DNA from: a virus
UHGV virus genome: UHGV-0047541
Reading direction: 5' to 3' (one strand)
Length of the DNA: 35,471 nucleotides
In this document: positions 1 to 35,421 of the stretch, in pieces
How positions within the stretch are numbered: position 1 is the stretch's first letter
Layout: each line of letters opens with the position of its first letter
The notes under the pieces: generated by a model
What the model was told of the DNA's origin: nothing
The model's database searches: none
The model's input: only the letters and a program-made list of their open reading frames with translations
Translations under genes and position numbers: made by a program

Positions 1-2492
1 CGGGCCATGTCATACACCGCCTTCAGAGCAGCCGGACCTATCTGCCCGTTCGTGCCGTCGTTGTTAATCACCACATGGTTATTCTGCTCAAACGTCCCGG
101 ACGCCTGCGACCGGCTGTCTGCCATGCTGCCCGGTGTACCGACATAACCGCCGGTGGCATAGCCGCGCATCAGCCGGTAAAGATTCCCCACGCCAATCCG
201 GCTGGTTGCCTCCTTCGTGAAGACAAACTCACCACGGTGAACAATCCCCGCTGGCTCATATTTGCCGCCGGTTCCCGTAAATCCTCCGGTTGCAAAATGG
301 AATTTCGCCGCAGCGACCTGAATGGCTGTACCGCCTGACGCGGATGCGCCGCCACCAACAGCACCGCCAATGGCGCTGCCGATACTTCCGACAATCCCCA
401 CCATTGCCTGCTTAAGCAGAATTTCTGTCATCATGGACAGCACGGAACGGGTGAAGCTGCGCCAGTTCTGCTCACTGCCGGTCAGCATCGCCGCCATATT
501 CTGTGCAATACTATCAAAGGTCTGCGTGGCTGCACTTTTTACCTGCGACATACTGTCCGTGGAGCTCTCTTCCCACTCACTCCAGCCGGACTTCAGGCCT
601 GCCATCCAGTTCCCGCGAAGCTGGTCTTCAGCCGCCCAGGTCTTTTTCTGCTCTGACATGACGTTATTCAGCGCCAGCGGATTATCGCCATACTGTTCCT
701 TCAGGCGCTGTTCCGTGGCTTCCCGTTCTGCCTGCCGGTCAGTCAGCCCCCGGCTTTTCGCATCAATGGCGGCCCGTTTTGCCCGTTGCTGCTGTGCGAA
801 TTTATCCGCCTGCTGCGCCAGCGCGTTCAGGCGCTCCTGATACGTAACCTTGTCGCCAAGTGCAGCCAGCTGGCGTTTGTACTCCAGCGTCTCATCTTTA
901 TGCGCCAGCAGGGATTTCTCCTGTGCAGACAGCTGGCGACGTTGCGCCGCCTCCTCCAGTACCGCGAACTGACTCTCCGCCTTCCACAAATCCCGGCGCT
1001 GCTGGCTGATTTTCTCATTTGCTCCGGCATGCTTCTCCAGCGTCCGGAGTTCTGCCTGAAGCGTCAGCAGGGCAGCATGAGCACTGTCTTCCTGACGATC
1101 GCCCGCAGACACCTTCACGCCGGACTGTTTCGGCTTTTTCAGCGTCGCTTCATAATCCTTTTTCGCCGCCGCCATCAGCGTGTTGTAATCCGCCTGCAGG
1201 ATTTTCCCGTCTTTCAGTGCCTTGTTCAGTTCTTCCTGACGGGCGGTATATTTCTCCAGCGGCGTCTGCAGCCGTTCGTAAGCCTTCTGCGCCTCTTCGG
1301 TATATTTCAGCCGTGACGCTTCGGTATCGCTCTGCTGCTGCGCATTTTTGTCCTGTTGAGTCTGCTGCTCAGCCTTCTTTCGGGCGGCTTCAAGCGCAAG
1401 ACGGGCCTTTTCACGATCATCCCAGTAACGCGCCCGCGCTTCATCGTTAACAAAATAATCATCCTTGCGCAGATTCCAGATGTCGTCTGCTTTCTTAAAC
1501 GCAGCCTCTGCCTTAATCAGCATCTCCTGCGCGGTATCAGGACGACCAATATCCAGCACCGCATCCCACATGGATTTGAAGGCCCGCGCAGTCCTGTCTG
1601 CCCAGGTCTCCAGCGTGCCCATGTTCTCTTTCAGGCGGCGGGTCTGGTCATCAAACCCTTTCGTTGCGGCCTCGTTCGCCGCCTGCAATGCCCCGGCTTC
1701 ATCGCCGGAACGCTGCAACTGAGCAACATACGCAATCTGCTCCGCCGTCACGTTATGGAACTGGCGTGCCATCGCCGTCAGCCCCGACGTCGGGTCTGTG
1801 GTCAGCTTCCCGAAGGCTTCAGCGACCTTGTCCACCTCCACGCCGGATGCAGAGGAGAAACGCGCCACACTCTGGCTGATGGACGCAATCTGAGCCTCAC
1901 CGCTTACCCCCGCCTTAACCAGTGCGCTGAGTGACTCGCTGGTCTGGTTAAACGTCAGCCCTGCCGCCTGCCCGGCTCTGGACAGGACCAGCATACGATC
2001 TGCCGTCAGTCCCGCCTGATTGCCGGAAAGGACCAGCGTTTTGTTGAAATCGGACAGGGTTGAGTTGCCCTGATACCAGGCATACGCCAGCGCACCGGTC
2101 GCCACCGCCAGCGAGGTGGCCCCCACCATCGGCAGGGTGATCGCACCGGCAAGCCCCCTGAACATGGGGATCATCCCGCCGAAGGAGTCCTTCACCTGCC
2201 CCCCCTGTTGCAGCAGGATCAGCCACGGACTTTGCCCGCCTGCAAGCTGCGTGGCCACGTCGGTGAACTGTGCAGGCAGCATACGCATGGCGGCTTTATA
2301 CTGCCCGACGGAAATCCCCGCTTTCTGTGCAGCCAGCGCCTGTCGGCTCAGCGACTGTTCAACGACTGCCGCTGTTTTTTTCGCATCACTTTCCGTACCG
2401 GAAAAATGACGCCTGACTCTGGCCATCTGCTCGTCAAATCTGGCCGCATCCAGACTTAAATCAACGACCAGATCGCCTACCGGTTCAGCCAT
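1..2492 (-). CDS. H: tail tape measure protein (lambda gpH-like), 3-prime partial; start codon at 2492, 830 codons in window
   Basis: Minus-strand translation from ATG at 2490-2492 reads MAEPVGDLVVDLSLDAARFDEQMARVRRHFSGTESDAKK... and continues in frame to position 3 (…TNGQIGPAALKAVYDMAR), matching recalled lambda H. Absent from the ORF track only because it has no stop inside the window. Confidence 0.9.
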   Translation of the reverse strand, partial: MAEPVGDLVVDLSLDAARFDEQMARVRRHFSGTESDAKKTAAVVEQSLSRQALAAQKAGISVGQYKAAMRMLPAQFTDVATQLAGGQSPWLILLQQGGQVKDSFGGMIPMFRGLAGAITLPMVGATSLAVATGALAYAWYQGNSTLSDFNKTLVLSGNQAGLTADRMLVLSRAGQAAGLTFNQTSESLSALVKAGVSGEAQIASISQSVARFSSASGVEVDKVAEAFGKLTTDPTSGLTAMARQFHNVTAEQIAYVAQLQRSGDEAGALQAANEAATKGFDDQTRRLKENMGTLETWADRTARAFKSMWDAVLDIGRPDTAQEMLIKAEAAFKKADDIWNLRKDDYFVNDEARARYWDDREKARLALEAARKKAEQQTQQDKNAQQQSDTEASRLKYTEEAQKAYERLQTPLEKYTARQEELNKALKDGKILQADYNTLMAAAKKDYEATLKKPKQSGVKVSAGDRQEDSAHAALLTLQAELRTLEKHAGANEKISQQRRDLWKAESQFAVLEEAAQRRQLSAQEKSLLAHKDETLEYKRQLAALGDKVTYQERLNALAQQADKFAQQQRAKRAAIDAKSRGLTDRQAEREATEQRLKEQYGDNPLALNNVMSEQKKTWAAEDQLRGNWMAGLKSGWSEWEESSTDSMSQVKSAATQTFDSIAQNMAAMLTGSEQNWRSFTRSVLSMMTEILLKQAMVGIVGSIGSAIGGAVGGGASASGGTAIQVAAAKFHFATGGFTGTGGKYEPAGIVHRGEFVFTKEATSRIGVGNLYRLMRGYATGGYVGTPGSMADSRSQASGTFEQNNHVVINNDGTNGQIGPAALKAVYDMA

Positions 2493-2919
2493 ACCGGACT
2501 CCTCCTGCGATCCCTTCTGATACTGTCATCAGCATTACGTCATCCTCCGTCATGTCCGCCACATCCGGGGTCGCGGGGATAATTTCATTCCCGTCCGGAT
2601 CAAAGCGGACGCCTCCGGCAAGCCCTGCCGCTTTCTGCATCAGCACATCATCTTCAGACGCTTCATCAACCTCACGCCGGTTCAGCAGACTGAAATCCAG
2701 CGGATGCAGATCCGGATCGCTGAAAAACAGGCTGAGCACGGTGTACGTCAGCCCGGAAAAGTGCATATCCAGCAGAACATCATGAAAATAATGGGTGCTG
2801 TAAAAGCGGTGCCAGTCGGCATACTCCGTGGATGACATCCCGGCAAGCATGGCGCGCCAGTCGGGTCGCCCCATCTCGCGCGCCAGTTTCAGGGCAAAAC
2901 TCAGCTCACCGTCGAACAC
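2485..2919 (-). CDS. T: tail assembly chaperone T frame (expressed as G-T fusion by -1 frameshift)
   Basis: 144-aa ORF in the -1 frame overlapping the 3-prime end of G; slippery heptamer present (see 2919-2925). Confidence 0.8.
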   Translation of the reverse strand: MFDGELSFALKLAREMGRPDWRAMLAGMSSTEYADWHRFYSTHYFHDVLLDMHFSGLTYTVLSLFFSDPDLHPLDFSLLNRREVDEASEDDVLMQKAAGLAGGVRFDPDGNEIIPATPDVADMTEDDVMLMTVSEGIAGGVRYG

Positions 2920-3323
2920 TTTCCCGCAGAAACAGGCTCTGCAGGCCCGGCGTCTTCTGTCTGCTCAGGAGCATTATTCACAACAAACTCAGACATACCG
3001 GACAGACGCATTACCACATTTTCAGCCTGAGCAATTGCCTCTGTGGGCCAGGTGGTAAGCACTTCCTGCTCAATCTGTTTAACGGCTTCATCCATGGACG
3101 GCAGCTTTGTCTTCTGCGGATGGTTATGCCACAGGGACATCGCTACCAGAAAAGCGCCGGTTCTGACGAGATCTTCCACGCTCACCAGCAGGTTATCGCC
3201 ACCTCCCGCCCGTTCTGCCTGTCGTTTCAGCAGGGCGAGATGCTCAATACGCTGCAGGGCTGACAGTTCAGAAAGCGTGACACTTACGCCGTTATATTCA
3301 AATGATTCAGTTTTCAGGAACAT
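2901..3323 (-). CDS. G: tail assembly chaperone G
   Basis: 140 aa, MFLKTESFEYNGVSVTLSELSALQRIEHLALLKRQ...AGKCSTVS, near-identical to recalled lambda gpG. Confidence 0.9.
   Translation of the reverse strand: MFLKTESFEYNGVSVTLSELSALQRIEHLALLKRQAERAGGGDNLLVSVEDLVRTGAFLVAMSLWHNHPQKTKLPSMDEAVKQIEQEVLTTWPTEAIAQAENVVMRLSGMSEFVVNNAPEQTEDAGPAEPVSAGKCSTVS
2919..2925 (-). other. programmed -1 ribosomal frameshift slippery site G GGA AAG in G frame
   Basis: Plus strand 2919-2925 is ctttccc, i.e. GGGAAAG on the minus strand, phased as G-GGA-AAG in the gpG reading frame a few codons before the G stop. Confidence 0.8.
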
Positions 3324-3338
3324 CGCTGACTCTCCGGA

Positions 3339-4079
3339 TTAACTGTCGGTGACGGTGATTTCTGCAACCGCAGCAAGTTCACCATTACCGGATACGACCG
3401 GAATGTTGACCTTACCTGCAGCAACGCCGTTCACGGTGATGGTCATACCACTGACCGACACGGTGGCTTTTGTTTTATCCGCTGACACCGCACGGAAGCT
3501 CTTGTCGGTTGCGCCCTCCGGCTGGAATGCCACGGTCAGCGTGATGCTCTTCCCTTTCACCACCGAGGTGCTGGCAGGCGTCACGGTCATGCCGGTTGCC
3601 GCTGTTACCGTGCTGCGATCTTCAGCCATCGACGGACGGCCCACATTGGTGACCTTCACTGTGCGGGTGATCACTTCCTTCGCCGTCACCGCCTTACCGA
3701 TACTGCTGACCCAGCCACGGAACACATCGACCGTGCCGTTCGGGAAGCGGATTTTATAGGCACGGGTATCACCTTCATTAAACCACGCCAGCAGCGCCTG
3801 CTGACCCTGCTCTCCGGGCATCCACGCCAGCGTGAAGCTGGTATCTCCGGCGGATTTCTGCCCCTGCCCGGTCGCAGTCCAGTCTGCATCTTCATCATCG
3901 AGATAGCTGTCGTCATAGGACTCAGCGGTCAGTTCGCCGGGCGTCAGGTCTTTAACTTTTGCCAGACGCGACCAGTCAACGTCTGAAAGCGGATTCGCAT
4001 AAGGGTCACCGCTTCCCTTATAAACCCACAGGGTGGTCCCGGCACCTTTCACCGGCATTACAGGATTTGGTACAGGCAT
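3339..4079 (-). CDS. V: major tail tube protein V with C-terminal Ig-like (Big_2) domain
   Basis: ORF 3339-4109; the lambda V start [27 protein letters not shown] is the internal Met at 4079. Confidence 0.9.
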
Positions 4080-12553: not shown

Positions 12554-13034
12554 CGAGTAAATCCGGTAATTTATCCCCCGCCCGCGCACACTGATTTGCC
12601 CCCTTCGCAATAAGGGTTTTCAGATGGTCAAGATGGCGCGGTGTTAAATCAGGAAACTGTCGCTGCATGGATAAAGGGATGGAATCAAGCGTACTGGATA
12701 ACGCCATTGCCAGCTTACTGAGGGCAAAAATACAGAACCCGGTGTCAATAAGTTTTCCTTTTGACACCTCATTTTTTAACTGCTGTGTAACAGCCTGTTC
12801 TGCTGTCAGTTCCCATCTGGCAATAAGCAATTTCTCCTCATAGTCGTCTTCGCTATCGCCACCAGGCACATCGTTTTTACTTCTCCTCAGATACGATATG
12901 TAAAAATCGCGCCAGGCATCCAGATCCAGTTGCCCTCGCTTATTCGATATCGGGGCACCCGGCAATTTCTGCAATCTGCGAAGCTGGCGATCGGTCAGAC
13001 TTAAATGCCTGGCAACTTCAGTCTGCGTAGCCAC
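12525..13034 (-). CDS. Nu1: terminase small subunit (Nu1-like C-terminal region, divergent N-terminal DNA-binding region)
   Basis: 169 aa; C-terminal FCIFALSKLAMALSSTLDSIPLSMQRQFPDLTPRHLDHLK resembles lambda Nu1; N-terminus differs; stop overlaps A start; about 185 bp from cosN. Confidence 0.8.
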   Translation of the reverse strand: MATQTEVARHLSLTDRQLRRLQKLPGAPISNKRGQLDLDAWRDFYISYLRRSKNDVPGGDSEDDYEEKLLIARWELTAEQAVTQQLKNEVSKGKLIDTGFCIFALSKLAMALSSTLDSIPLSMQRQFPDLTPRHLDHLKTLIAKGANQCARAGDKLPDLLDEYIRATTE

Positions 13035-13176
13035 TCCTCACCTCGCAAAAACTCTCACCTCACAATCACAACAAAACCGGTCATGTCCGGCTTACATGTT
13101 TATTTTTTGTTCACGTCCGGTTCACAGAAAACCTGTTTCTATATTTTTCATATAGTTAACCTGAAGAGAAACCGGA

Positions 13177-13240
13177 CATGGATCCCGGAAAATTTTCATA
13201 AATAGCGAAAACCCGCGAGGTCGCCGCCCCGTAACCTGCC
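13177..13240 (-). other. cos site: cosN with lambda-type 12-nt cohesive end GGGCGGCGACCT (minus strand, 13229-13218) and flanking lambda-like sequence
   Basis: Reverse complement of 13177-13240 reads GGCAGGTTACGGGGCGGCGACCTCGCGGGTTTTCGCTATTTATGAAAATTTTCCGG, matching the recalled lambda left-end cos sequence. Confidence 0.85.
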
Positions 13241-14395
13241 GGATCGCCGGAAAGGACCCGCCAGCCAGAGCGGGCCTAAATTCATCAACCAATCAGCTTA
13301 TAGCGGCCATCCCGTGCATTACGGTGTACACGCTCAATATTGAGGCATAGTGCACATCTGGCTTTTTTGGCACAGGAACACGGCAACATTCAGAAGCGCG
13401 AGGAATATTATTTATCCAGTCGATCACTTCGCTTAAATACCAGGCATTGCGTCCTTACGTAACTGACACTGCCTCCAATATTGAAGATGTAAGTTGATAA
13501 GACCTGATAAAAGTTTATATCCAAAATCAAGATAAGACTTATCACTTTAATAAATTAGCAAGAAAACAATACCTCTGATTTACCATGCGGAAATAACTAA
13601 TAGACATTCACTTTTCAGTTTATTATTTTCCAGCAGTACTATACCTTCAGTTAAACACCATTTTTTTACATGTTCAATTTTTATATAACTCATTCAGATT
13701 TATCACCACCAGATTGTGTTTCCACAGAGAATAGCCGGCTAACCTCTGTTATATCGTTGCTTATTTCATCACACGATAACGATATTATTTCCGTTACTGA
13801 TTACCTTAATAAAAATGGCATTTCGCATTGTTTTTACTTTCTGTCAACAGGGAATATAAGGTTTACCACACATAATCAAAGTATGATCACGGTACAGACC
13901 CAAAAAAGATCTGCTTATATAAACCACAGGCCAAATAATATCTGGACAAAACTGGTTATAAAAAAACATTTATCCGGAAACATACCCTTCTTCCGGAGCC
14001 ACTTTACTCTGTCCCGTACAGGCATCTTTAAATATGTTCTGGATGTAAACAGAAAACACTGCCAGTATTACTCAGTAAGAAACCACATTTTGCATTCACA
14101 ATTCATTATTCCGGTTTCTTCCACCATCGCACCGGAAAAGCGACTATGAGGGTAAACCTGCGTCCGTCAGCGCACTAAAACCCGGTGTGCATCGTTTTTG
14201 ATTATTCCCGCACACTCTCGCAGAAGGAGTTCCCCGTCGGGCTACGGTCTCTGTTAATACGGGAATACGGCGACGATACAGCGCATGATGTGTCAGGCTT
14301 GAATACCTTTATCCGTTAAAAAGGATATCAGTTAAGTTATCCCGTGCAGGGTATAAGCCATTATCAAGCCCACCCGTAGATAGGCTTTGTAATGG

Positions 14396-18936: not shown

Positions 18937-19013
18937 TGGACCGCCACCGGAGACTCGAACCTCGCACACTCAACTTAAAGGGTTGATGCTCTTCCCTGAT
19001 GAGCTAGTGGCGG
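18937..19013 (-). tRNA. atypical tRNA-like gene (anticodon loop CCUUUAA, putative UUU/Lys, C at position 33; possible pseudo-tRNA)
   Basis: 77 nt with 7-bp acceptor stem CCGCCAC/GTGGCGG, D and anticodon stems, TTCGAGT T-loop, encoded CCA; non-canonical C33 and T-stem mismatch. Confidence 0.5.
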
Positions 19014-19014
19014 T

Positions 19015-19090
19015 TGGTGGCCCTTGCTGGATTTGAACCAGCGACCTGGCGATTATGAGTCGCTCGCTCTCACCACTGAGCTAAAGGGCC
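19015..19090 (-). tRNA. tRNA with CAU anticodon (ileX/ileZ-like tRNA-Ile2, formally Met)
   Basis: 76 nt, GGCCCTTTAGCTCAGTGGTGAGAGCGAGCGACTCATAATCGCCAGGTCGCTGGTTCAAATCCAGCAAGGGCCACCA; close to recalled E. coli ileX. Confidence 0.8.
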
Positions 19091-19663
19091 AAGCGCAGAA
19101 TAGTAACGTTACGAAATCAATGTTGCAAGCGTTCAAAAATCCACTGGTAAAAAATTACCCTTAACTCCTCCACCAGCGCATTCACCATGTTTATCCGAGA
19201 TAAGTGGCACAAAAAAACCGCTCAATGGCGGGTTTAAGCTGTGTGACGAAGCAACCACTCTTAACAGCATAACCAATTTTTTACGTACGTAAACCACTAA
19301 ATGATATTTGCGAGAATGCTACCGAGTATTGAAAACACCACTACAAATACATAAGCAAATCTCAACAAATAACTAACAAATAATTTCCAGTGTTATTTTT
19401 AGTCGATTTAAATTGAATATTCAAATTATAGAGCACTTATAAATAACATCCGTTAATATAAATTAACTAATAGATTTATTTTTATTCAGCCAAGAGCCAT
19501 GAATAGGATTCGATAGAAAAAAGTTCAGATAAAAATAGAGATCTACTTCACAAATCAAACGAGAAACCAAAACTTACATCTTGAAATAATCACATTGATT
19601 AGATGAATATTTATCGTGCAGTGACATCATTTTTTAATAATAGTTCAAAAAAAAGGACTCACG

Positions 19664-20746
19664 ATGAAAAAATTAACAGTGGCAATTTCTGCTGTAGCTG
19701 CATCAGTACTGATGGCGATGTCTGCTCAGGCAGCTGAAATTTATAATAAAGACAGTAACAAGCTGGATCTGTACGGGAAAGTTAATGCTAAGCACTACTT
19801 CTCCTCTAATGATGCAGATGATGGCGATAAGACCTATGCCCGTCTTGGCTTCAAAGGTGAAACCCAAATCAACGATCAACTGACTGGTTTCGGTCAGTGG
19901 GAATATGAATTCAAAGGCAACCGCGCTGAATCTCAAGGTTCCTCCAAAGATAAAACCCGTCTTGCCTTCGCTGGCCTGAAATTCGGTGACTACGGCTCCA
20001 TCGATTATGGCCGTAACTACGGTGTAGCATACGATATTGGTGCATGGACCGACGTTCTGCCAGAATTCGGTGGCGATACCTGGACCCAAACAGATGTATT
20101 CATGACTGGTCGCACCACAGGTGTTGCAACATACCGTAACAAAGACTTCTTTGGCCTGGTAGATGGTCTGAACTTTGCTGCTCAGTATCAGGGTAAAAAT
20201 GACCGCACTGACGTAACTCAAGCTAATGGTGATGGTTTCGGTTTCTCCACTACTTATGAGTATGAAGGATTCGGCGTAGGTGCAACCTATGCTAAATCTG
20301 ACCGCACTAATAATCAGGTTATCTACGGTAACAACAGCCTGAATGCATCTGGTCAAAATGCTGAAGTATGGGCAGCTGGTCTGAAATATGATGCGAACAA
20401 CATCTATCTGGCTACTACCTATTCTGAAACCCAAAACATGACTGTTTTTGGTAAAAACCATATTGCCAACAAAGCACAAAACTTCGAAGTAGTTGCACAA
20501 TATCAGTTCGACTTCGGTCTGCGTCCGTCCGTTGCTTATCTACAATCTAAAGGAAAAGACTTGGGTGCTTGGGGTGATCAGGACCTGGTTGAATATATTG
20601 ATGTAGGTGCAACCTATTACTTCAACAAAAATATGTCCACTTTTGTTGACTACAAAATCAACCTGATTGATAAGAGCGATTTCACGAAAGTATCTGGCGT
20701 TGCTACCGATGATATCGTTGCTGTAGGTATGGTTTACCAGTTCTAA
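19664..20746 (+). CDS. OmpC/OmpF-family general porin (NmpC/Lc-like lysogenic-conversion porin)
   Basis: 360 aa, signal peptide [39 protein letters not shown]..., C-terminal MVYQF; AT-rich upstream region. Confidence 0.9.
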
Positions 20747-20883
20747 TTTGATTACTAAAAGATATGTTGCGGGAGGCTTTGCCTCCCCAACATATAAGTG
20801 GCTCCCTCAAGCCACTTCCTTTAGAAGCACAACCTTGCTTCTAACTATATAAACCTTCTGTTATATATTACCCTTTATTTTTA

Positions 20884-20908
20884 GGGGCGTTTCAACGCCC
20901 CATTTTTA
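20884..20908 (+). terminator. intrinsic terminator (plus strand) downstream of porin gene
   Basis: GGGGCGTTTCAACGCCCC hairpin followed by ATTTTT. Confidence 0.6.
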
Positions 20909-20934
20909 ATAACTCTCAGTAAACAATTAGCATA

Positions 20935-21333
20935 TTAATTAGAGTTATTAATAACGATATCCATCTCTAACCGGATATCTAATGCCATTAACATCCCTTC
21001 AATTATGCCCTCAGCCTTCTGTAACCTTTTCCCGATATAACCATCAGAGCAGCAATGCTTACCTGCCAGTGACATGAATGTCATACCGACTACATAATAA
21101 TCTACTAATAAATCGTGCAAATCGCTGTTGTTCTTTTTCAGACGGGCCATGCACCCGCAAATGATCATCGCGTCATCGTCACAACATTGCAGGCGAGATT
21201 TTACTTTTGAAGGAATTAATCCCTTAAAACCGGCGGCAATGGACGACCAGGTCACATCTTCATGATTATTAGCCGCCCACGCTCCCCAACGTTCAAGAAC
21301 CATCTGAATATCACGCATCAACTTACTCCACAA
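20935..21333 (-). CDS. late-gene antiterminator Q (QuuD/phage-82 type)
   Basis: 132 aa, ...[34 protein letters not shown]...CGCMARLKK...; position immediately upstream of the late region. Confidence 0.8.
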
Positions 21334-24085: not shown

Positions 24086-24408
24086 ACTTTCAGGCCCCTC
24101 TCATGTAACCAGTGGGTTGCACGCAGCCTGGCGTTTTCCTCACCGGAAAGCAGTGAGCGGATAATCCCGACCGCCTCGCTGTCGTCGTCCTTCATCGCAG
24201 TATGAAGCGTTATCCCCCGGGCCACGCCACGCTTTATCGTGATGACGCCTTTTTTCTCCAGTGCGCGAAGATGCTCTACCGCTGCATTCACTGAACGGTA
24301 TCCCTGCATGGTTGCCACCTCCTGATTGGTTGGCGGGAAGCCACGTTCTTTCTGATAAGAAATCAGCATATCCAGCACCTGCTGCTGGCATTGAGTTAAC
24401 GTCGTCAT
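24082..24408 (-). CDS. LexA N-terminal DNA-binding domain-like protein (no peptidase domain)
   Basis: 108 aa, QQVLDMLISYQKERGFPPTNQEVATMQGYRSVNAAVEHLRALEKKGVI winged-helix LexA-like. Confidence 0.6.
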   Translation of the reverse strand: MTTLTQCQQQVLDMLISYQKERGFPPTNQEVATMQGYRSVNAAVEHLRALEKKGVITIKRGVARGITLHTAMKDDDSEAVGIIRSLLSGEENARLRATHWLHERGLKV

Positions 24409-25058
24409 GCCGCCATCTCCCTGACCAGTTTTTCCGCCTGCTGGCGAACCTGCGCCAGAAACGCCTCACCACATGCCTCAAGTTCATCGCGCCCGATGTA
24501 GCTGATTGCCGGTCCCTTCCATGTCTTGTCGAAAACAGCAATAGCACCAGCGAAGAACGCTCCTGTCGGCACCTGCTTCTCGTCTTTCGGGATAAACCAG
24601 ACAGGCAGTTCAAAACCAATACGCCCGCGAATAAAAGCAATATGATCTGCATCTTCCGGCCACCACACTTCGCTGGTGGCAGCTTTGATCAGGAAAACAT
24701 AGCGCCCGCCTTTATCGCGCATGGCACTGGCATGCTTCATGATGTAACGCATGCCAGTGATGTATTGCCCCTCATGCTGACTGGCGCGGCTGTATGGGGG
24801 ATTACCAAAGGCAGCACCTTTAAGCTCCGCAAGACGTTCTGACCAGTCATGCGCCAGCGCGTTGTCTTCCGCCGTGTAATACGCGGCACATTTGGCGTTA
24901 TCACCGTCAGTAAACAGATCCAGAACAAACGGACCAAACAGGGTGTTAATTCCCCAGAAAATGTTATCCGGCGTGCGCCACTGATCACCTACTTCCTTCA
25001 GTTCATGGGCTGGTTTGTTCCGCAGTTCCACCAGCGCCTGGCAATATTTATTACTCAT
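24405..25058 (-). CDS. phage DNA N6-adenine methyltransferase (Dam family)
   Basis: ORF 24405-25091, likely start MSNKYCQAL at 25058; catalytic FGNPPYS motif. Confidence 0.8.
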   Translation of the reverse strand: MSNKYCQALVELRNKPAHELKEVGDQWRTPDNIFWGINTLFGPFVLDLFTDGDNAKCAAYYTAEDNALAHDWSERLAELKGAAFGNPPYSRASQHEGQYITGMRYIMKHASAMRDKGGRYVFLIKAATSEVWWPEDADHIAFIRGRIGFELPVWFIPKDEKQVPTGAFFAGAIAVFDKTWKGPAISYIGRDELEACGEAFLAQVRQQAEKLVREMAA

Positions 25059-25552
25059 TAAGCCCCCACGTAATTCCCTGACAGATACCACTCTTCACCC
25101 GATGCAGCGCGCTTGCTGCTTTTCCGTAAGCACCGCTCACGACGCGCCAGAAAATTGTTTCGTTCTGGCTGGGAGTGGCTTTCACGGAATGCCGCCATCC
25201 ACACGGTTGCAGCACGACGAAATAAGCCCCTGGACTCCAGTTCTTCCGCCTGGCGGGTCAGGCACAAAATCACCCGTGGATCGTTAGTGCCGACATAGAA
25301 ATTGCGCACAGGTCTGGTTTCACGAACTGGTTGTAGTTCCGGCTCCTGCGCTCTCTCAGTCAGGCGCGGGAAATGTCTGCGTGTATCCCCTTCGCAACGG
25401 TGAGCCACACGCCCACTCTGACGTAACTTGCTTGCTGACTGCAGAACGCGCTGCCGTGAGTAACCTGCAAAAGCATCCGCAATGTCTCCGGAAGTACACC
25501 CCGGATGGGCTTCAATGTATTTCTGAACTTCATTCAAAAGACTCATGATCAC
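25058..25552 (-). CDS. hypothetical protein (basic, possible DNA-binding)
   Basis: 164-aa ORF, coupled to flanking genes. Confidence 0.5.
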   Translation of the reverse strand: MIMSLLNEVQKYIEAHPGCTSGDIADAFAGYSRQRVLQSASKLRQSGRVAHRCEGDTRRHFPRLTERAQEPELQPVRETRPVRNFYVGTNDPRVILCLTRQAEELESRGLFRRAATVWMAAFRESHSQPERNNFLARRERCLRKSSKRAASGEEWYLSGNYVGA

Positions 25553-28537: not shown

Positions 28538-28634
28538 ATAACCTCCACATATTGCGTGATAAGCATATTATTTCACGCAAATATTTTGCGCAAGTTGATT
28601 TGCTTAACGCGCAATAAAGAAATGTAATAAACGC
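28538..28634. promoter_or_regulatory. oR-like divergent promoter/operator region between cro-like and cI-like genes
   Basis: 97-bp intergenic region with dyad elements TTGCGTGATAAGCAT (28552-28566), CGCAAATATTTTGCG (28576-28590) and TTGCTTAACGCGCAA (28599-28613). Confidence 0.6.
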
Positions 28635-29327
28635 ATGAACATAGGAAATCGAGTCAGACAACTTCGCCAGGCGAAGAACATGAAAATCGCCGATCTCGCT
28701 GAAGCAATAGGAGTGGATGCGGCGAATATCTCGCGCCTGGAAACAGGTAAGCAGAAACAATTCACTGAACAAGCTCTGAGTAATATTGCCAGGAGCTTAG
28801 GTGTTGATATTGCTGATCTCTTTACCTCAGACTTCAAAAGTAATACTGTATGTAAAAACAGTATTAGTGAGGATGTTGCGCAGGTGAAGGATGTATTCCG
28901 TATTGAAATGCTGGATGTCAGTGCCAGTGCGGGAAATGGCCTTATCCAGGGCGGTGATGTCATTGATGTGATTCATGCCATTGAATACAGAACTGATAAT
29001 GCTGTATCGATGTTTGGCGGACGACCAGCCAATCACATTAAAGTTATCAACGTTCGTGGGGACAGTATGTGTCCAACCATTGAGCCAGGAGATCTCATCT
29101 TCGTTGATGTCAGTATCAATCAGTTTGATGGAGATGGTATCTATGTATTTGGTTTTGATGATAAAATTTATGTCAAACGACTGCAAATGATACCTGACAA
29201 ACTACTGGTGATTTCTGATAACCAGATTTACCGTGAATGGGGAATTACCAGCGAAAATGAACACCGGTTTATGGTCTTTGGAAAGGTCTTAATCAGCCAG
29301 TCACAAACCCTTAAGCGACACAATTAA
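28635..29327 (+). CDS. CI-like prophage repressor (HTH plus LexA-like S24 peptidase domain)
   Basis: 230 aa; N-terminal HTH (IGNRVRQLRQAKNMKIADLAEAIGVDAANISRLETG), C-terminal VRGDSMCPTIEPGDLIFVD and KIYVKRL Ser/Lys dyad. Confidence 0.85.
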   Translation: MNIGNRVRQLRQAKNMKIADLAEAIGVDAANISRLETGKQKQFTEQALSNIARSLGVDIADLFTSDFKSNTVCKNSISEDVAQVKDVFRIEMLDVSASAGNGLIQGGDVIDVIHAIEYRTDNAVSMFGGRPANHIKVINVRGDSMCPTIEPGDLIFVDVSINQFDGDGIYVFGFDDKIYVKRLQMIPDKLLVISDNQIYREWGITSENEHRFMVFGKVLISQSQTLKRHN

Positions 29328-29382: not shown

Positions 29383-29421
29383 TTGCACATCTCGCAATAA
29401 AAACACTTGCATAATGCGCAA
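29383..29421. promoter_or_regulatory. oL-like operator pair
   Basis: Two TTGC-N7-GCAA dyads: TTGCACATCTCGCAA (29383-29397) and TTGCATAATGCGCAA (29407-29421), same motif as in the oR region. Confidence 0.5.
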
Positions 29422-29449
29422 CTTCATTTTATCTTTCTTTCCAGACCAA

Positions 29450-30049
29450 CAAACAAGGTACTAACAAAATTTGGTTGTAACACGGCGTATGGCACATGCG
29501 TCGTTAGCGGTCTGGGGACGTTAAAGGGGACAATCCACTCCTTGCTCGGGCAAACAAACCAGGTAGCCGGAATGTGCAAGTCAATGATGATGCTGATAAG
29601 ACGCCTAACCAGCGTGGCGATTCGGTTTGACGCCTGGGAAGAGACCAGGGTGCAACGATGAGGGCATTTATGGAACCGCCACAAAGTGTGGTGCCGTAAC
29701 TGGCTAAGTGCTCTCAGCGTTGTGGTGAATGCGCAGGCTGATGCGCGAAAGACATTGCAGCTATTGCGGAAAAGAGCTGTTCGGCGGGGCAATTAAATGC
29801 CCGTGAGAGTCTGAAATAACCGCAAGCCGGAGATCAGCACCGGTCACCACAACAGCCACTGCTTTGGCGGTACCAGTTTGTACACTTGCTTCCGGCTGGT
29901 ACCGCTCTTTTTACAAAACAGAGAAGAGCATCACCGGACGACGGGCTCATAACCCAATCCACCCGGGCGGCTGCCACCGCAGGTGTTCTTCTCTGTTTTG
30001 TGGAGAAACCAACCGACCTTGCAGGGTCGATATGATGAGGAGCAGCAAA
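29450..30049 (+). ncRNA. long structured untranslated leader of the leftward early operon (candidate cis-acting antitermination/processing element; no N gene)
   Basis: About 600 nt without credible ORF; nested inverted repeats (GGGCATTTA/TAAATGCCC; GCGGTACCAG/CTGGTACCGC followed by TCTTTTTA; 15-bp ACAAAACAGAGAAGA/TCTTCTCTGTTTTGT) and a boxA-like CGCTCTTTTTACAA. Confidence 0.4.
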
Positions 30050-30412
30050 ATGGCTAGCGAACGCAGTACTGATGTGCAGGCATTTATCGGGGAGCTGGAC
30101 GGCGGCGTATTTGAAACCAAAATCGGCGCAGTTCTCAGTGAAGTCGCTTCAGGTGTGATGAACACGAAAACCAAAGGTAAGGTCTCACTCAACCTGGAAA
30201 TCGAACCATTTGATGAGAACCGTGTGAAAATCAAACACAAACTCTCATATGTTCGCCCGACTAACCGCGGGAAAATTTCCGAAGAAGACACCACCGAAAC
30301 GCCGATGTATGTCAATCGCGGTGGTCGCCTGACTATTCTGCAGGAAGACCAGGGACAATTACTGACTCTTGCCGGTGAACCTGACGGAAAACTCCGCGCA
30401 GCAGGTCATTAA
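30050..30412 (+). CDS. yfdP: YfdP-like protein (120 aa)
   Basis: Start MASERSTDVQAFIGELDGG at 30050 with GAGG RBS; length and position match the CPS-53 yfdP-yfdQ-yfdR order. Confidence 0.55.
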   Translation: MASERSTDVQAFIGELDGGVFETKIGAVLSEVASGVMNTKTKGKVSLNLEIEPFDENRVKIKHKLSYVRPTNRGKISEEDTTETPMYVNRGGRLTILQEDQGQLLTLAGEPDGKLRAAGH

Positions 30413-30477
30413 TATCGTTCTTAATTAACCGATTATTTATCTCATCACTGAATATCTTTATATAGTGAGGACTTATT

Positions 30478-31302
30478 ATGTCTCAGAACTTAGACGCAAC
30501 CGCAATTAATCAAATCCATGCCCTTATTTCTGCTCAGGGTGTTAATGAAATTATCAGTAAGATTGGTGCCGATGCTGTGGCATTGCCTGAGAATTTCCGC
30601 ATTCATGATCTGGAAAAATTTAATTTAAATCGCTTCCGTTTCCGTGGTGCGCTTTCCACTGCCAGCATCGATGACTTTACCCGTTATTCTAAAGATCTTG
30701 CAGATGAAGGCACCCGCTGCTTTATCGATGCCGATAATATGCGAGCAGTCAGTGTGCTTAACCTGGGTACTATTGATGAACCAGGTCACGCAGATAACAC
30801 CGCCACTCTCAAACTGAAAAAGACAGCACCGTTCTCTGCCCTGTTGTCTGTTAACGGCGAGCGTAACTCCCAGAAGTCACTGGCAGAATGGATTGAAGAC
30901 TGGGCCGACTACCTTGTGGGCTTTGATGCTAATGGTGACGCTATTCAGGCAACAAAAGCGGCTGCGGCGGTCCGTAAAATCACGATTGAAGCAAACCAGA
31001 CCGCTGATTTTGAAGATAATGACTTCAGCGGCAAACGCTCCCTGATGGAGTCTGTCGAAGCGAAGACCAAAGATATTATGCCAGTGGCATTTGAATTTAA
31101 ATGCGTTCCGTTTGAAGGTCTGAAAGAACGTCCATTTAAATTACGCCTCAGCATTATCACTGGCGATCGTCCTGTACTGGTTCTGCGCATTATTCAGCTG
31201 GAAGCAGTGCAGGAAGAAATGGCTAACGAATTTCGTGATCTGCTTGTTGAGAAATTCAAAGACAGCAAAGTAGAAACCTTTATTGGTACTTTCACCGCCT
31301 GA
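30478..31302 (+). CDS. yfdQ: DUF2303-family protein YfdQ-like (274 aa)
   Basis: 274-aa [28 protein letters not shown]...; length and context as in CPS-53 yfdQ. Confidence 0.6.
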
Positions 31303-31430
31303 TTTCATTACTGCAAATGCCCCTGCGGGGGCATTTATGGAAACGTAATTAACTAAATAATCGCCGGATGGTGAGGGCTTCCTTTTACCCGAATTCAGCG
31401 CGGTGCAGCGCATATAACGTGGAGAACAAA

Positions 31431-31967
31431 ATGTCATTTATTAAAACTTTTTCCGGGAAGCATTTTTATTATGACAGGATAAATAAAGACAACATCGATA
31501 TTAACGATATCGCGGTTTCCCTTTCAAATATCTGTCGCTTTGCCGGTCATCTTTCACACTTCTACAGCGTCGCCCAACATGCGGTGCTTTGCAGCCAGCT
31601 GGTGCCGCAGGAATTTGCTTTTGAAGCGTTAATGCATGATGCAACAGAAGCGTATTGCCAGGACATCCCCGCGCCACTGAAACGCCTTCTTCCTGACTAT
31701 AAACGGCTGGAAGAAAAAATAGACGCCGTAATCCGTGAGAAATACGGGTTACCCCCGGTTATGAGTACGCCCGTGAAATATGCCGATCTCATCATGCTGG
31801 CAACCGAACGCCGCGATCTCGGGCTTGATGATGGCTCTTTCTGGCCTGTACTGGAAGGCATCCCGGCAACAGAGATGTTCAACGTGATTCCACTGGCACC
31901 GGGCCATGCCTACGGGATGTTTATGGAACGCTTCAACGAGTTATCGGAATTACGCAAATGTGCATAA
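31431..31967 (+). CDS. yfdR: HD-domain 5-prime-deoxynucleotidase YfdR-like (178 aa)
   Basis: Start MSFIKTF at 31431 with GGAGA RBS; HD-domain residues (H...HD: SVAQHAV, ALMHDATEAY). Confidence 0.65.
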   Translation: MSFIKTFSGKHFYYDRINKDNIDINDIAVSLSNICRFAGHLSHFYSVAQHAVLCSQLVPQEFAFEALMHDATEAYCQDIPAPLKRLLPDYKRLEEKIDAVIREKYGLPPVMSTPVKYADLIMLATERRDLGLDDGSFWPVLEGIPATEMFNVIPLAPGHAYGMFMERFNELSELRKCA

Positions 31968-32836
31968 CTCATGTAGTTAGTTTTTCTGGCGGGAGAACAT
32001 CTGCATATCTTGTTCACCTGATGGAAGAACAAAGAAAGGCTGGCAATAACGTCTGCTACATCTTTATGGATACCGGTTGCGAACATCCGCTGACATACCG
32101 CTTTATTCGGGAGGTTGTGAAGTTCTGGGGCATACCGCTAACTGTGTTGCAGGTCGATATAAATCCAGAGCTTGGGCAGCCAAATGGTTATACGGAATGG
32201 GAACCACAGGATATTCAGACACGAATGCCGGTGCTTAAACCGTTTATGGACATGGTAAAAAAATATGGCACGCCATACATCGGCGGCGCGTTCTGCACTG
32301 ACAGATTAAAACTCACCCCCTTCACAAAATACTGCGATGACCATTTCGGACGAGGGAATTACATCACATGGCTGGGTATTCGTGCAGACGAACCTCGTAG
32401 GCTGAAACCGAAATCGGGCGTCCGGTATCTTGCCGAGCTATCTGATTTTGATAAGTCGGATGTTATCCGGTGGTGGCATAAACAACCTTTTGATTTGCAA
32501 ATCCCGGAGCACCTCGGGAACTGTGTTTTCTGCATCAAAAAGTCCACGCAAAAGCTGGGGCTTGCATGTAAAGACGAACCTGGTCTGATGCGAGTTTTTA
32601 ATGAGCTGGTTACAGGTAAACACGTCCGGGATGGTCACCGAAAGACAAATAAAGACGTTATGTACCGTGGTCATCTGAGCCTTGACGGGATTGCCAGAAT
32701 GTATGCCGACAGCGACTACAGAAATTTGTATCAGGCGATGGTGCAAGCCAGGCGATTCGATACCGGCTCGTGTTCAGAGTCATGTGAAATCTGGGGTGAT
32801 CAATTGGAATTGAAATTCGAAGAGGTGGTGGCATGA
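31958..32836 (+). CDS. phosphoadenosine-phosphosulfate reductase family (PP-loop ATP pyrophosphatase) protein
   Basis: 292 aa; N-terminal VVSFSGGRTSAYL PP-loop (SGGxxS) motif; Cys-rich C-terminus. Confidence 0.65.
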   Translation: MCITHVVSFSGGRTSAYLVHLMEEQRKAGNNVCYIFMDTGCEHPLTYRFIREVVKFWGIPLTVLQVDINPELGQPNGYTEWEPQDIQTRMPVLKPFMDMVKKYGTPYIGGAFCTDRLKLTPFTKYCDDHFGRGNYITWLGIRADEPRRLKPKSGVRYLAELSDFDKSDVIRWWHKQPFDLQIPEHLGNCVFCIKKSTQKLGLACKDEPGLMRVFNELVTGKHVRDGHRKTNKDVMYRGHLSLDGIARMYADSDYRNLYQAMVQARRFDTGSCSESCEIWGDQLELKFEEVVA

Positions 32837-33036
32837 CAATCGTAAAAACCCATACCGGCATTGTGATCACCAAAGACGGCCCGCAGGTAAAAAAACTTCA
32901 CCAGACAGAGCGGATGTGGGTCGTGGGCAAAAACGAGTTTTACCACAAAGAAACCGGACGCCGCCACTTTGCAGAAAATACGCGCCGCCGACTACTGATC
33001 GACACCATCAAGCCTATCGAGGTGAAGCATGTTTAA
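32833..33036 (+). CDS. hypothetical small protein
   Basis: 67-aa ORF translationally coupled in operon. Confidence 0.45.
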   Translation: MTIVKTHTGIVITKDGPQVKKLHQTERMWVVGKNEFYHKETGRRHFAENTRRRLLIDTIKPIEVKHV

Positions 33037-33253
33037 ACAGAACGAAAAATCTATCGCTCAAATTGCTGAGTATATCCCGCGTGCGTGCCGGGGTATGCAG
33101 TTGCAGGAAGCCAAAGCGCGCCTGGAGAAAAAAATTGCGCTCTATATCGATGACGGCTGTGATGCTGCCGTTCTTAACGCGGCGTTCGCGCCAGCTCTTA
33201 ACAGTCATACGCGGGAGTCTTTTTTTTTCGCGCATCGCAGCGCAGATCCGTAA
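33029..33253 (+). CDS. hypothetical small protein
   Basis: 74-aa ORF overlapping previous stop. Confidence 0.45.
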   Translation: MFKQNEKSIAQIAEYIPRACRGMQLQEAKARLEKKIALYIDDGCDAAVLNAAFAPALNSHTRESFFFAHRSADP

Positions 33254-33265
33254 AGGAGGCAACCA

Positions 33266-33577
33266 GTGAGCAATTATCTGTACTGGTCTGGCTTAGTGGC
33301 TAACATTGCGCTCATGTTGTTCGTGGCTCTTTGCATCTGGGTTTGGTTTATCTGGCCTTTTGTAGAGGCCATGAGCATAACTCGGTGCTTTATTTGCGCA
33401 TCAAAGACTTCTGGATGCAAACCAACTGTAAGAGCAATTATCAGAACTTTAAAATACTGGTATCTGGATTTGCTTTTCGGCAGGGGCTGGACGCGAATTA
33501 GTAACCGCCAGTTTGAATGGGAAGGCGTCGGTAACTGGCGAATTCACAGCAGCAAAGAAACGCAGGAGGTGAAGTAA
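33266..33577 (+). CDS. hypothetical membrane protein
   Basis: 103 aa with N-terminal hydrophobic helix LVANIALMLFVALCIWVWFIWPF. Confidence 0.5.
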   Translation: MSNYLYWSGLVANIALMLFVALCIWVWFIWPFVEAMSITRCFICASKTSGCKPTVRAIIRTLKYWYLDLLFGRGWTRISNRQFEWEGVGNWRIHSSKETQEVK

Positions 33578-34149
33578 TGAACAACTTAATGATCGACCTT
33601 GAGACGATGGGGAAAAATAAGGATGCACCAATCGTTTCCATTGGCGCGGTGTTCTTCACCCCAGAAACCGGAGACATCGGACAAGAATTCTATACGGTTG
33701 TCAGCCTGGAAAGTGCTATGGAGCAAGGGGCCACACCTGACGGCGATACCATCCTGTGGTGGTTGAAACAGAGCCCTGAAGCACGAGCTGCAATCTGTAT
33801 TGATGATACTTTGTCGATCAGCGATGCACTCTCTGAACTGAGCCATTTCATTAATCAGCATGCAGACAATACAAAATATTTAAAAGTCTGGGGTAACGGG
33901 GCCACCTTCGACAACGTAATTTTACGTGGAGCTTATGAGCGAGCAGGACAAATCTGCCCGTGGGCATACTGGAATGACCACGATGTACGCACGATCGTTA
34001 CGCTTGGGCGTTCCATCGGATTCGACCCCAAAATGGACATGCCTTTCGATGGCGAACGGCACAACGCCCTGGCCGATGCCCGTCATCAGGCAAAATATGT
34101 TTCCGCTATCTGGCAGAAATTAATTCCTGCCACCAGCACAGAATTATGA
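33577..34149 (+). CDS. DEDDh-family 3-prime to 5-prime exonuclease
   Basis: 190 aa; Exo motifs MIDLETMG, WGNGATFD, H-NALADA; AGGAGG RBS upstream. Confidence 0.7.
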   Translation: MNNLMIDLETMGKNKDAPIVSIGAVFFTPETGDIGQEFYTVVSLESAMEQGATPDGDTILWWLKQSPEARAAICIDDTLSISDALSELSHFINQHADNTKYLKVWGNGATFDNVILRGAYERAGQICPWAYWNDHDVRTIVTLGRSIGFDPKMDMPFDGERHNALADARHQAKYVSAIWQKLIPATSTEL

Positions 34150-34185
34150 TTTTCCCGGGTGCAGCCGGTTTTGATGGAGAAAATT

Positions 34186-34467
34186 ATGAACACCTTGTTT
34201 TTACTGATGGCTGAATTCAATACCCCTAACATTGAACTCTCAGCAGTTAGCCAAAAGTACTTTGGCATGAGTCCAGCCACGGCAGAAGCAAAAGCAAACG
34301 CTTGTAAGTTGCCCGTTCCAACATATCGCATCGGCACATCACAAAAAGCAAAACGTTGCATCAATATTCAGGATCTTGCGGAATACATAGACAAAAGACG
34401 AGAAGAAGGACGTATCGAGTGGGAACAGGTCAGAACAAGCAAACAGAAGGGCAAAGAACATCACTAA
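34186..34467 (+). CDS. excisionase-like (AlpA/PrtN-type) DNA-binding protein
   Basis: ORF 34159-34467; start MNTLFLL at 34186 preceded by GGAGA; small basic protein at the distal end of the early-left operon. Confidence 0.5.
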   Translation: MNTLFLLMAEFNTPNIELSAVSQKYFGMSPATAEAKANACKLPVPTYRIGTSQKAKRCINIQDLAEYIDKRREEGRIEWEQVRTSKQKGKEHH

Positions 34468-34469
34468 AG

Positions 34470-34497
34470 AAAAAACCCGCCTTTAGGCGGGTTTTCA
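34470..34497. terminator. bidirectional intrinsic terminator
   Basis: AAAAAACCCGCC-TTTA-GGCGGGTTTT with A/T runs on both sides, between convergent genes. Confidence 0.75.
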
Positions 34498-34514
34498 AAA
34501 AGCACCAGCTATGA

Positions 34515-34688
34515 TCATGCTGCTTTGCGACGACGAAGCTTACCCTGCTGCTCTTTACCAGAGACAGTAGCGTGAGTGAACGCATTAGGAGCAGCCTTCA
34601 TCAGAACTTCAACAGCAGCACCCATACCTGCGAATGCTTTCATTGTGTCGAACTTAACCTGTGGCTTGGTTGCTTTTTGATCTTTCAT
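34515..34688 (-). CDS. hypothetical small protein (57 aa), below ORF-track threshold
   Basis: Minus-strand ATG at 34688 preceded by GGGAG RBS; MKDQKATKPQVKFDTMKAFAGMGAAVEVLMKAAPNAFTHATVSGKEQQGKLRRRKAA; ends at the bidirectional terminator. Confidence 0.5.
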   Translation of the reverse strand: MKDQKATKPQVKFDTMKAFAGMGAAVEVLMKAAPNAFTHATVSGKEQQGKLRRRKAA

Positions 34689-34884: not shown

Positions 34885-35421
34885 CTACTGAGCAAATTTA
34901 AGAAAGATATCCTGCAGCTCATCAATGACTGCAGACATCACATAACCGCACTGTTCCATGCGGAAACCAAAAGACTCGTAATACTGCACCAGTTCTGGTA
35001 CTGGCTCTACAATGTGGACAACTTTACATTCAACAGCTTTACAAAATATAAAAGCACTCATAAGAGTGAGTAAAACCATGCGCCCTTTCAATGGGTGAGA
35101 TTCATCTTCTCTAGAAAACCTTTCGATCATATGGATACGAAAGATGTTTTCTTCAACCCCATAAACACAAATTGCTGCTCCTGATGGTATTCCCTGAACC
35201 CGACCTTGCTGAACAAGTTTTATGCAGAACTCATACTTTTCTCTGGAGTTGCCATAGGTGCTTAACGCATAGTCCCATTCAAGCTCACCATAGCCACCAC
35301 ACAGAATCTTGTAATCATCATCACTGAGCGGACCAACAGCAAGAGGTAAGCCGACATGATCAATAATCAACTGGATATTGTTACGTACAGATTGACCTAT
35401 CTCGTCTAGGGTAAGCATCAT
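34885..35421 (-). CDS. hypothetical protein, low-GC cargo gene
   Basis: 178-aa ORF in a region of about 42 percent GC; no confident family assignment. Confidence 0.5.
   Translation of the reverse strand: MMLTLDEIGQSVRNNIQLIIDHVGLPLAVGPLSDDDYKILCGGYGELEWDYALSTYGNSREKYEFCIKLVQQGRVQGIPSGAAICVYGVEENIFRIHMIERFSREDESHPLKGRMVLLTLMSAFIFCKAVECKVVHIVEPVPELVQYYESFGFRMEQCGYVMSAVIDELQDIFLKFAQ

Follow-up and report, generated by a model that had tools for sequence, protein, structure and literature searches.

The gene cluster yfdP-yfdQ-yfdR is common in the early-left (PL) operons of lambdoid phages, whether or not these operons also contain a canonical recombination module (recent study of such phages), and YfdR of Escherichia coli K-12 binds domain I of DnaA (PMC4776307). 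DnaQ-like 3'-5' nucleases have likewise been noted in lambdoid left operons (PMC12315714). A 2026 survey reported reductases of 3'-phosphoadenosine 5'-phosphosulfate (PAPS) in operons under Aca control and suggested an anti-defence role for them. DndC has been described as a PP-loop enzyme with a [4Fe-4S] cluster on three cysteines plus a distinct cysteine dyad as the presumed acceptor of sulfur (PMC10853773). The virus genome UHGV-0047541 (35,471 nucleotides, all of which is called the window below) possesses a gene cluster at 30050-34149 that combines yfdP, yfdQ and yfdR with a PP-loop gene, ninC, three small open reading frames (ORFs) and an exonuclease gene. The region is probably the accessory section of the PL operon in a lambdoid prophage of E. 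coli (CPS-53/SfV/mEp460 type), assembled as a mosaic of cassettes, among which ninC would contribute a counter-defence mechanism; our confidence in this reading as a whole is somewhat better than even.

By sequence, the 'PAPS reductase' of the cluster (31958-32836, + strand, 292 amino acids) is a PP-loop protein of the ATP-pyrophosphatase fold and orthologous to NinC (nin region ORF-290) of phage lambda. The two proteins share 227 of 290 residues (78%) over the full length and without gaps, as found with tblastn and then by direct alignment; the match to Pfam PF01507 is confined to residues 5-72 (E 4e-9). The window holds no second ninC copy, and its single gene occupies the slot of yfdS in CPS-53 and mEp460, directly after yfdR. 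The initial annotation had placed the product in the PP-loop PAPS-reductase family and had missed its relation to NinC. The family assignment stands; the gene is no unusual acquisition, since the protein is lambda's own NinC, there encoded in the nin region.

NinC is found far beyond this prophage. A 93%-identical protein occurs in the same early-left context in 62 records of Stx2a-converting phages, and the allele group of the window is present in 549 of 5,426 complete E. coli genomes (~10%), often directly after yfdR. Matches to the family amount to 590 phage records and 331 plasmid records. Among the plasmid matches, 141 are from Acinetobacter and 157 are typed as conjugative. No conserved partner gene was found: lambda, Stx2a phages, Vibrio phages, phage Chi, a Gilliamella prophage and plasmids each flank the gene differently. 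In phage Chi, which is virulent, the homologue is gp42 and lies between a thymidylate synthase complementing (ThyX-like) gene and a nucleoside 2-deoxyribosyltransferase gene; this nucleotide-metabolism context (2477-3834 of the locus) is unlike those in temperate phages. The gene is very widespread in phages and plasmids, and lambda offers a clean genetic test system for it.

NinC was aligned with 22 close and seven distant members, including phage Chi gp42 (30%) and a protein of a Riemerella phage (28%). Invariant in all of them are the PP-loop SGG..S, C113, C189xxC192 and K194/K195. The invariant set further comprises T-G-E, C113 within [FY]C[TS][DE]R[LM]K, R-x-D-E-P and G-N-C189-x-x-C192-x-K-K, and the C-terminus reads G-S-C272-S-E-S-C276-E in most members. 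An hhalign comparison with an annotated DndC from a Rhizobium plasmid (probability 93%, NinC residues 4-147) pairs FCTDRLK of NinC with WCTDRLK of DndC, and G-C265-W-T-C268-..-K of DndC parallels N-C189-V-F-C192-I-K-K of NinC. As far as these motifs tell, NinC has a cysteine inventory like that of DndC in a different arrangement, which is a resemblance in mechanism and not family membership. By analogy, C113, C189 and C192 would hold a [4Fe-4S] cluster, and the C-terminal cysteine pair could carry a persulfide. The PADLOC model of SspD is matched with 55.8 bits (E 1e-15) at profile positions 2-125 of 277 only, the DndC models with 15-16 bits (E 1e-3). Assignment of NinC as a true DndC or SspD is rejected on the scores against these hidden Markov models and on the lack of partner genes; true dndC adjoins dndD and lies directly upstream of it. 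A weak sequence match to PDB 21fy 'PptA' (E 0.59), with a similar NCVxCxK motif, was not recovered by the profile search, and the literature searched gave nothing relevant to it.

The only phenotype linked to the family comes from Vibrio phage 44E38.1. In its protein p0018, a NinC-like domain is joined to a Dam methylase; identity to the window protein is 55% over 96% of the latter, and all NinC-invariant residues are kept. When p0018 and the adjacent p0019 were moved into a sister phage, this phage infected a host with DndFGH-dependent resistance (Piel et al.). The window encodes a stand-alone Dam in the right operon (24405-25091, - strand; PF05869, E 1e-45). It belongs to the Pfam family of the methylase part of p0018 and has 27% identity (E 8e-14) with that Dam domain. 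Since both NinC and a stand-alone PF05869 Dam are encoded, the prophage carries both halves of p0018 as separate genes. Other NinC homologues lie directly after Dam-type and C5 DNA methylases (P2-like prophage of Gilliamella), near H-NS and an N6 DNA methylase (Acinetobacter MOBF conjugative plasmid pOCUAc19-1) or with TraN/UvrD on one side and several small ORFs in a row on the other (Photobacterium conjugative element). More generally, the NinC loci examined on plasmids and such elements hold genes for H-NS, thermonuclease or orphan methylases, or TraN and UvrD. That the PP-loop enzyme may serve nucleic-acid modification or counter-defence, as the initial annotation had considered possible, gains independent support from the DndC motifs, the Vibrio anti-Dnd transfer and the methylase and conjugative neighbours.

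The best-supported hypothesis is one in which NinC performs ATP-dependent, probably iron-sulfur (Fe-S)-assisted sulfur chemistry on nucleic acid and so aids escape from phosphorothioate-dependent defence. Acting alone with host factors such as IscS, NinC would adenylate a nucleic-acid substrate and transfer sulfur to it, or would otherwise interfere with sulfur-based DNA marking; phage DNA would as a result be protected from Dnd-type phosphorothioate-dependent restriction. The counter-defence hypothesis is already in the literature, and the cysteine signature and methylase associations sharpen it without proving it. Taken together, the three-cysteine signature resembling that of DndC, the pair of cysteines at the C-terminus, the fusion to Dam and the neighbouring methylases narrow the hypotheses to a testable one. 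The analysis shows gene identities, orthology, motifs, fold and mosaicism; Fe-S binding, substrate and a part in counter-defence are inferred from these. In its broadest form, NinC would be a stand-alone, Fe-S-dependent PP-loop sulfurtransferase of phages and plasmids that, with host IscS alone, puts a phosphorothioate or another thio-modification on the incoming or replicating DNA of the element or disables the phosphorothioate machinery of the host, and so confers broad immunity to Dnd, Ssp and BREX-type-4-like systems. We put this form forward as a speculative idea, to which we give roughly one chance in four. If true, it would supply a function for a lambda gene that has lacked one for decades, and would explain the movement of ninC between phage early operons and the transfer regions of conjugative elements.

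The three yfd products of the window are 99% (YfdP), 99% (YfdQ) and 97% (YfdR) identical to the proteins of CPS-53 in K-12. YfdP (30050-30412, + strand, 120 amino acids; phrog_204, E 1e-49) is 100% identical to gp35 of mEp460 and could be assigned to nothing in Pfam, NCBIfam, PADLOC or the PDB, even with permissive thresholds. YfdQ (30478-31302, + strand, 274 amino acids) covers positions 2-269 of 269 of the DUF2303 model (Pfam PF10065, E 2e-92). The PDB entry 9o7m, 'YfdQ Protein', is a ~40%-identical homologue (E 1e-44), and a large homo-oligomer is suggested because this entry has 36 chains. An AlphaFold2 model of YfdQ of moderate confidence (predicted local distance difference test 76) gave no significant Foldseek match in the PDB, 9o7m not being among the matches. 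The yfdP-yfdQ pair is the conserved core of the cluster, since the Stx2a phage keeps a yfdP-like (58% identity) and a yfdQ-like (53%) gene yet has yfdR replaced.

YfdR (31431-31967, + strand, 178 amino acids) is an HD phosphohydrolase matching phrog_318 (deoxynucleoside monophosphate, dNMP, phosphatase; E 4e-109) and the HD protein PDB 2gz4 (E 1e-13), and more weakly the Pfam YfbR-like/HD family, with 23.3 against a gathering score of 25.9. H50 and H69-D70 of the H...HD motif are intact, and the K-12 orthologue is annotated as 5'-deoxynucleotidase. The best-documented activity of YfdR is DnaA binding rather than nucleotide-pool control, a point that the initial annotation had missed. The K-12 protein, besides binding DnaA domain I, has weak dNMP phosphatase activity, and YfdR probably damps the initiation of host replication.

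Annotated E. coli chromosomes match the 4.8 kb from 29800 to 34600 at 99% identity over the full length, and there the stretch is the end of a prophage adjoining zur and dinF; annotations of this sequence exist for dozens of E. coli genomes. About three quarters of it are common to phage mEp460. Some part of the stretch occurs in 3,247 of the 5,426 complete E. coli genomes, and at least 80% of it is covered in only 33 of them. Gene order was compared among the 80 closest NinC loci in IMG/VR, all relatives returned being at least 93% identical. The full order of the window is kept in only five of these loci; yfdP-yfdQ-yfdR usually precedes ninC, and the genes downstream vary widely. YfdR is present without NinC in mEp460 and K-12, NinC without YfdR in the Stx2a phage, and NinC without either YfdR or the exonuclease of the window in lambda. 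Two conserved small ORFs are present in mEp460, which is without NinC. The genes therefore assort independently and constitute a cassette mosaic, not a pathway. The 'nucleotide-directed gene set' that the initial annotation had seen as coherent arose, judged from these gene orders, incidentally as cassettes were shuffled within the accessory section of the left operon. The interpretation was partly right as a whole, and made too much of both coherence and novelty: known gene families stand here in a common arrangement that is already known and annotated, with nothing new in kind.

A CI-like repressor gene (28635-29327, + strand) is located upstream of the operon, with a Cro-like gene on the opposite strand, and because of these two genes the placement in a leftward operon, as first proposed, is right. 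Two palindromes of the form TTGC-N7-GCAA (29383-29397 and 29407-29421, + strand) are found just 3' of the cI-like gene and its terminator, and a third copy at 28600-28614 between the cI-like and cro-like genes; the window contains six matches to this pattern versus 1.5 expected. As the palindromes at 29383-29421 repeat the one in the cI/cro intergenic region, they suggest left-operator (OL)-type sites, and 29383-29421 is probably the OL/PL control region of the operon. The cassettes would be transcribed together once the CI-like repressor leaves its operators. The leader directly 5' of yfdP contains a long imperfect hairpin with 25-nt arms (inverted repeat at 29913-30001, + strand). The RNA fold of 29900-30050 has -61.5 kcal/mol, with a z-score of -5.5 versus shuffles, and the hairpin might serve the left operon in termination or antitermination. 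It overlaps a 47-amino-acid minus-strand ORF that is annotated as a gene in mEp460. A 122-amino-acid ORF on the - strand (29424-29792), annotated as gp37 in mEp460 and without a family match, lies between the repressor gene and yfdP and may be a moron inside the leader of the left operon.

Several points weigh against the reading of the region as a PL operon whose ninC acts in counter-defence. To our knowledge, biochemical activity has been demonstrated for no NinC. Lambda ninC is dispensable in the laboratory. The similarity of NinC to DndC and SspD is restricted to the N-terminal half, with scores far below those of true members, and no DndD, DndE, SspB or SspC genes occur near ninC, either in the operon of the window or in the related loci. 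The three cysteines could bind zinc rather than an Fe-S cluster. A scan with the sigma-70 consensus gave no convincing PL promoter. Inhibition of replication initiation in K-12 required yfdS or yfdT besides yfdQ and yfdR (Noguchi and Katayama 2016), and tblastn detected no yfdS, yfdT or DUF551 homologue anywhere in the window; the K-12 phenotype can therefore not simply be assumed here. Finally, the Vibrio experiment moved p0018 along with p0019, and p0018 is itself fused to Dam, so that the NinC domain alone was not isolated as the cause (Piel et al.).

NinC might alternatively modify RNA, as a thiolase of tRNA or other RNA or as an adenylating modifier of the TtuA/NcsA/TilS type, which would adjust translation or shield tRNAs from anticodon nucleases. 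We consider this unlikely: the CTDRLK and CxxC..K motifs match DndC specifically, fusion partner and gene neighbours are DNA methylases, and the one phenotype tied to the family is escape from a DNA-phosphorothioate system. NinC might also block Dnd or Ssp without modifying phage DNA, either as a decoy for the IscS/DndA persulfide or for DndD/DndE, or as a consumer of cofactor. Such a role would agree with a DndC-like protein that has no DndD, DndE or other specificity partners nearby, and with a gene that behaves as a single-gene cassette in many contexts. Yet the PP-loop and the three cysteines are strictly conserved in very distant members, which argues for catalysis rather than mimicry, and ninC also persists in phages whose hosts are not known to carry Dnd, such as lambda in K-12; we give the decoy role about one chance in eight.

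A single nucleotide-pool pathway, in which the exonuclease releases dNMPs, YfdR dephosphorylates them and NinC modifies the nucleotide, would make sense of three co-transcribed genes that all act on nucleotides or nucleic acids, and of the ThyX-like and nucleoside 2-deoxyribosyltransferase genes that flank the NinC homologue of phage Chi. It is improbable in view of the independent assortment among K-12, mEp460, lambda and the Stx2a phage, and of the few loci that keep the order of the window. Still more improbable, to a degree that we give it hardly any weight, is a genuine reductase of PAPS or adenosine 5'-phosphosulfate (APS), kept as an auxiliary metabolic gene that boosts sulfate assimilation of the host. 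The database name, the PF01507 match and the best PDB sequence matches, which are APS/PAPS reductases, speak for such an enzyme. However, the PF01507 match ends at position 66 of 175 (positions 2-66 only), the NCBIfam CysH equivalog PRK02090 is matched with 20.4 bits against a cut-off of 154, the catalytic motif ECGLH (EC.[LI]H) is absent from the NinC protein, and only ~165 of the 292 residues superpose on the fold. A PAPS reductase of sulfate assimilation is rejected on the curated thresholds and the missing ECGLH.

Nine tightly packed + strand ORFs span 30050-34467, and the genes from yfdR to the exonuclease gene overlap or adjoin at every junction, as would suit a single operon. The named genes of the initial annotation are present on the + strand according to ORF and profile matches that lie far beyond chance, with corrections for the start of yfdR, which is 31431 as in PGAP and K-12 and not the upstream ATG at 31368, and for the second small ORF. 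Profile searches and motifs likewise bear out the HD, PP-loop/PAPS-reductase-family and DEDDh domains named there.

The three small ORFs between ninC and the exonuclease gene (32833-33577), already listed as lacking an assignment, match their own PHROG only and gave no Pfam, NCBIfam, PADLOC or PDB assignment at permissive thresholds; they are presumably separate cassettes. Small ORF 1 (32833-33036, + strand, 67 amino acids; phrog_1226, E 1e-42) has 91-98% identical copies in mEp460, which is without NinC, and in the Stx2a phage. Small ORF 2 (33029-33253, + strand; phrog_1344) comprises 74 amino acids here and 79 in relatives. It contains a T9 run at 33220-33228 versus T8 in three relatives (an E. 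coli chromosome, mEp460 and the Stx2a phage), and is therefore frameshifted, with its product shortened from 79 to 74 amino acids and the overlap with the next gene broken; the T9 run reflects a real mutation or else a sequencing error in the homopolymer. Small ORF 3 (33266-33577, + strand, 103 amino acids; phrog_2531, E 4e-27) has no counterpart in mEp460, K-12 or the Stx2a phage. Its product has a hydrophobic N-terminal segment (~residues 7-34, hydropathy window up to 2.47) and a Cys-rich stretch, and is probably a small membrane protein.

The exonuclease gene (33577-34149, + strand) encodes 190 amino acids of the Rv2179c-like DEDDh type, predicted to act 3'-5'. The protein matches positions 1-177 of 177 of Pfam PF16473 (E 1e-75) with the catalytic residues D7, E9, D112, H162 and D167 all present, is 98% identical to gp26 of mEp460 and matches PDB 8kel 'Exodeoxyribonuclease' (227 residues, E 6e-10). 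The label 'exodeoxyribonuclease VIII' in some phage records is a misnomer, the protein not being a 5'-3' nuclease of the RecE or lambda-Exo type. It is followed by a PrtN-family excisionase gene (34159-34467, + strand; Pfam PF11112, E 4e-23; phrog_1300 'excisionase'), for which PGAP places the start at the ATG at 34186 and whose product is 97% identical to gp25 of mEp460. A GC-rich hairpin between A and T runs at 34469-34496, detected by a terminator scan and in the sequence, is probably a bidirectional terminator closing the operon.

Beyond the excisionase gene, at the prophage end, two minus-strand ORFs (34515-34688, 57 amino acids; 34885-35421, 178 amino acids) are conserved in mEp460 and a related E. 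coli prophage and have no Pfam match. They are followed by the integrase in mEp460 and by host zur in the related E. coli prophage; no integrase is present between the excisionase gene and the end of the window (35471). Elsewhere in the window, the segments 13001-14000 and 19001-21000 have a G+C content of 0.39-0.41 versus 0.45-0.59 in the rest, and may be inserted cargo genes.

Compared with the described systems, NinC of the window has the nucleotide-binding, N-terminal half of its fold in common with CysH-type PAPS/APS reductases, which are also its best sequence matches in the PDB, but lacks the catalytic ECGLH cysteine, differs in the C-terminal half and fails the curated thresholds. With DndC and SspD it has in common the PP-loop, the DTG/E motif, the [FW]CTDRLK cysteine, RxDE and a downstream CxxC followed by a lysine; in DndC, however, the cysteine pair precedes the CxxC, whereas it is at the C-terminus in NinC, and the C-terminal halves are not alignable. 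Vibrio p0018 differs by its methylase domain, which NinC of the window does not possess. Lambda NinC has the same PP-loop, invariant cysteines and C-terminal SCSESCE motif, but lambda and P22-like phages carry the gene between ninB and ninD/ninE in the right operon, and the window in the early-left operon. The exonuclease resembles the DEDDh nucleases of the Rv2179c (RNase AS) type in its full-length PF16473 match and all five DEDDh residues. CPS-53, with yfdP-yfdQ-yfdR-yfdS-yfdT, agrees with the window in 97-99% identical yfdP, yfdQ and yfdR in the same order and in an excisionase gene at the end; in place of its DUF551 proteins YfdS and YfdT, the window has NinC, the three small ORFs and the exonuclease.

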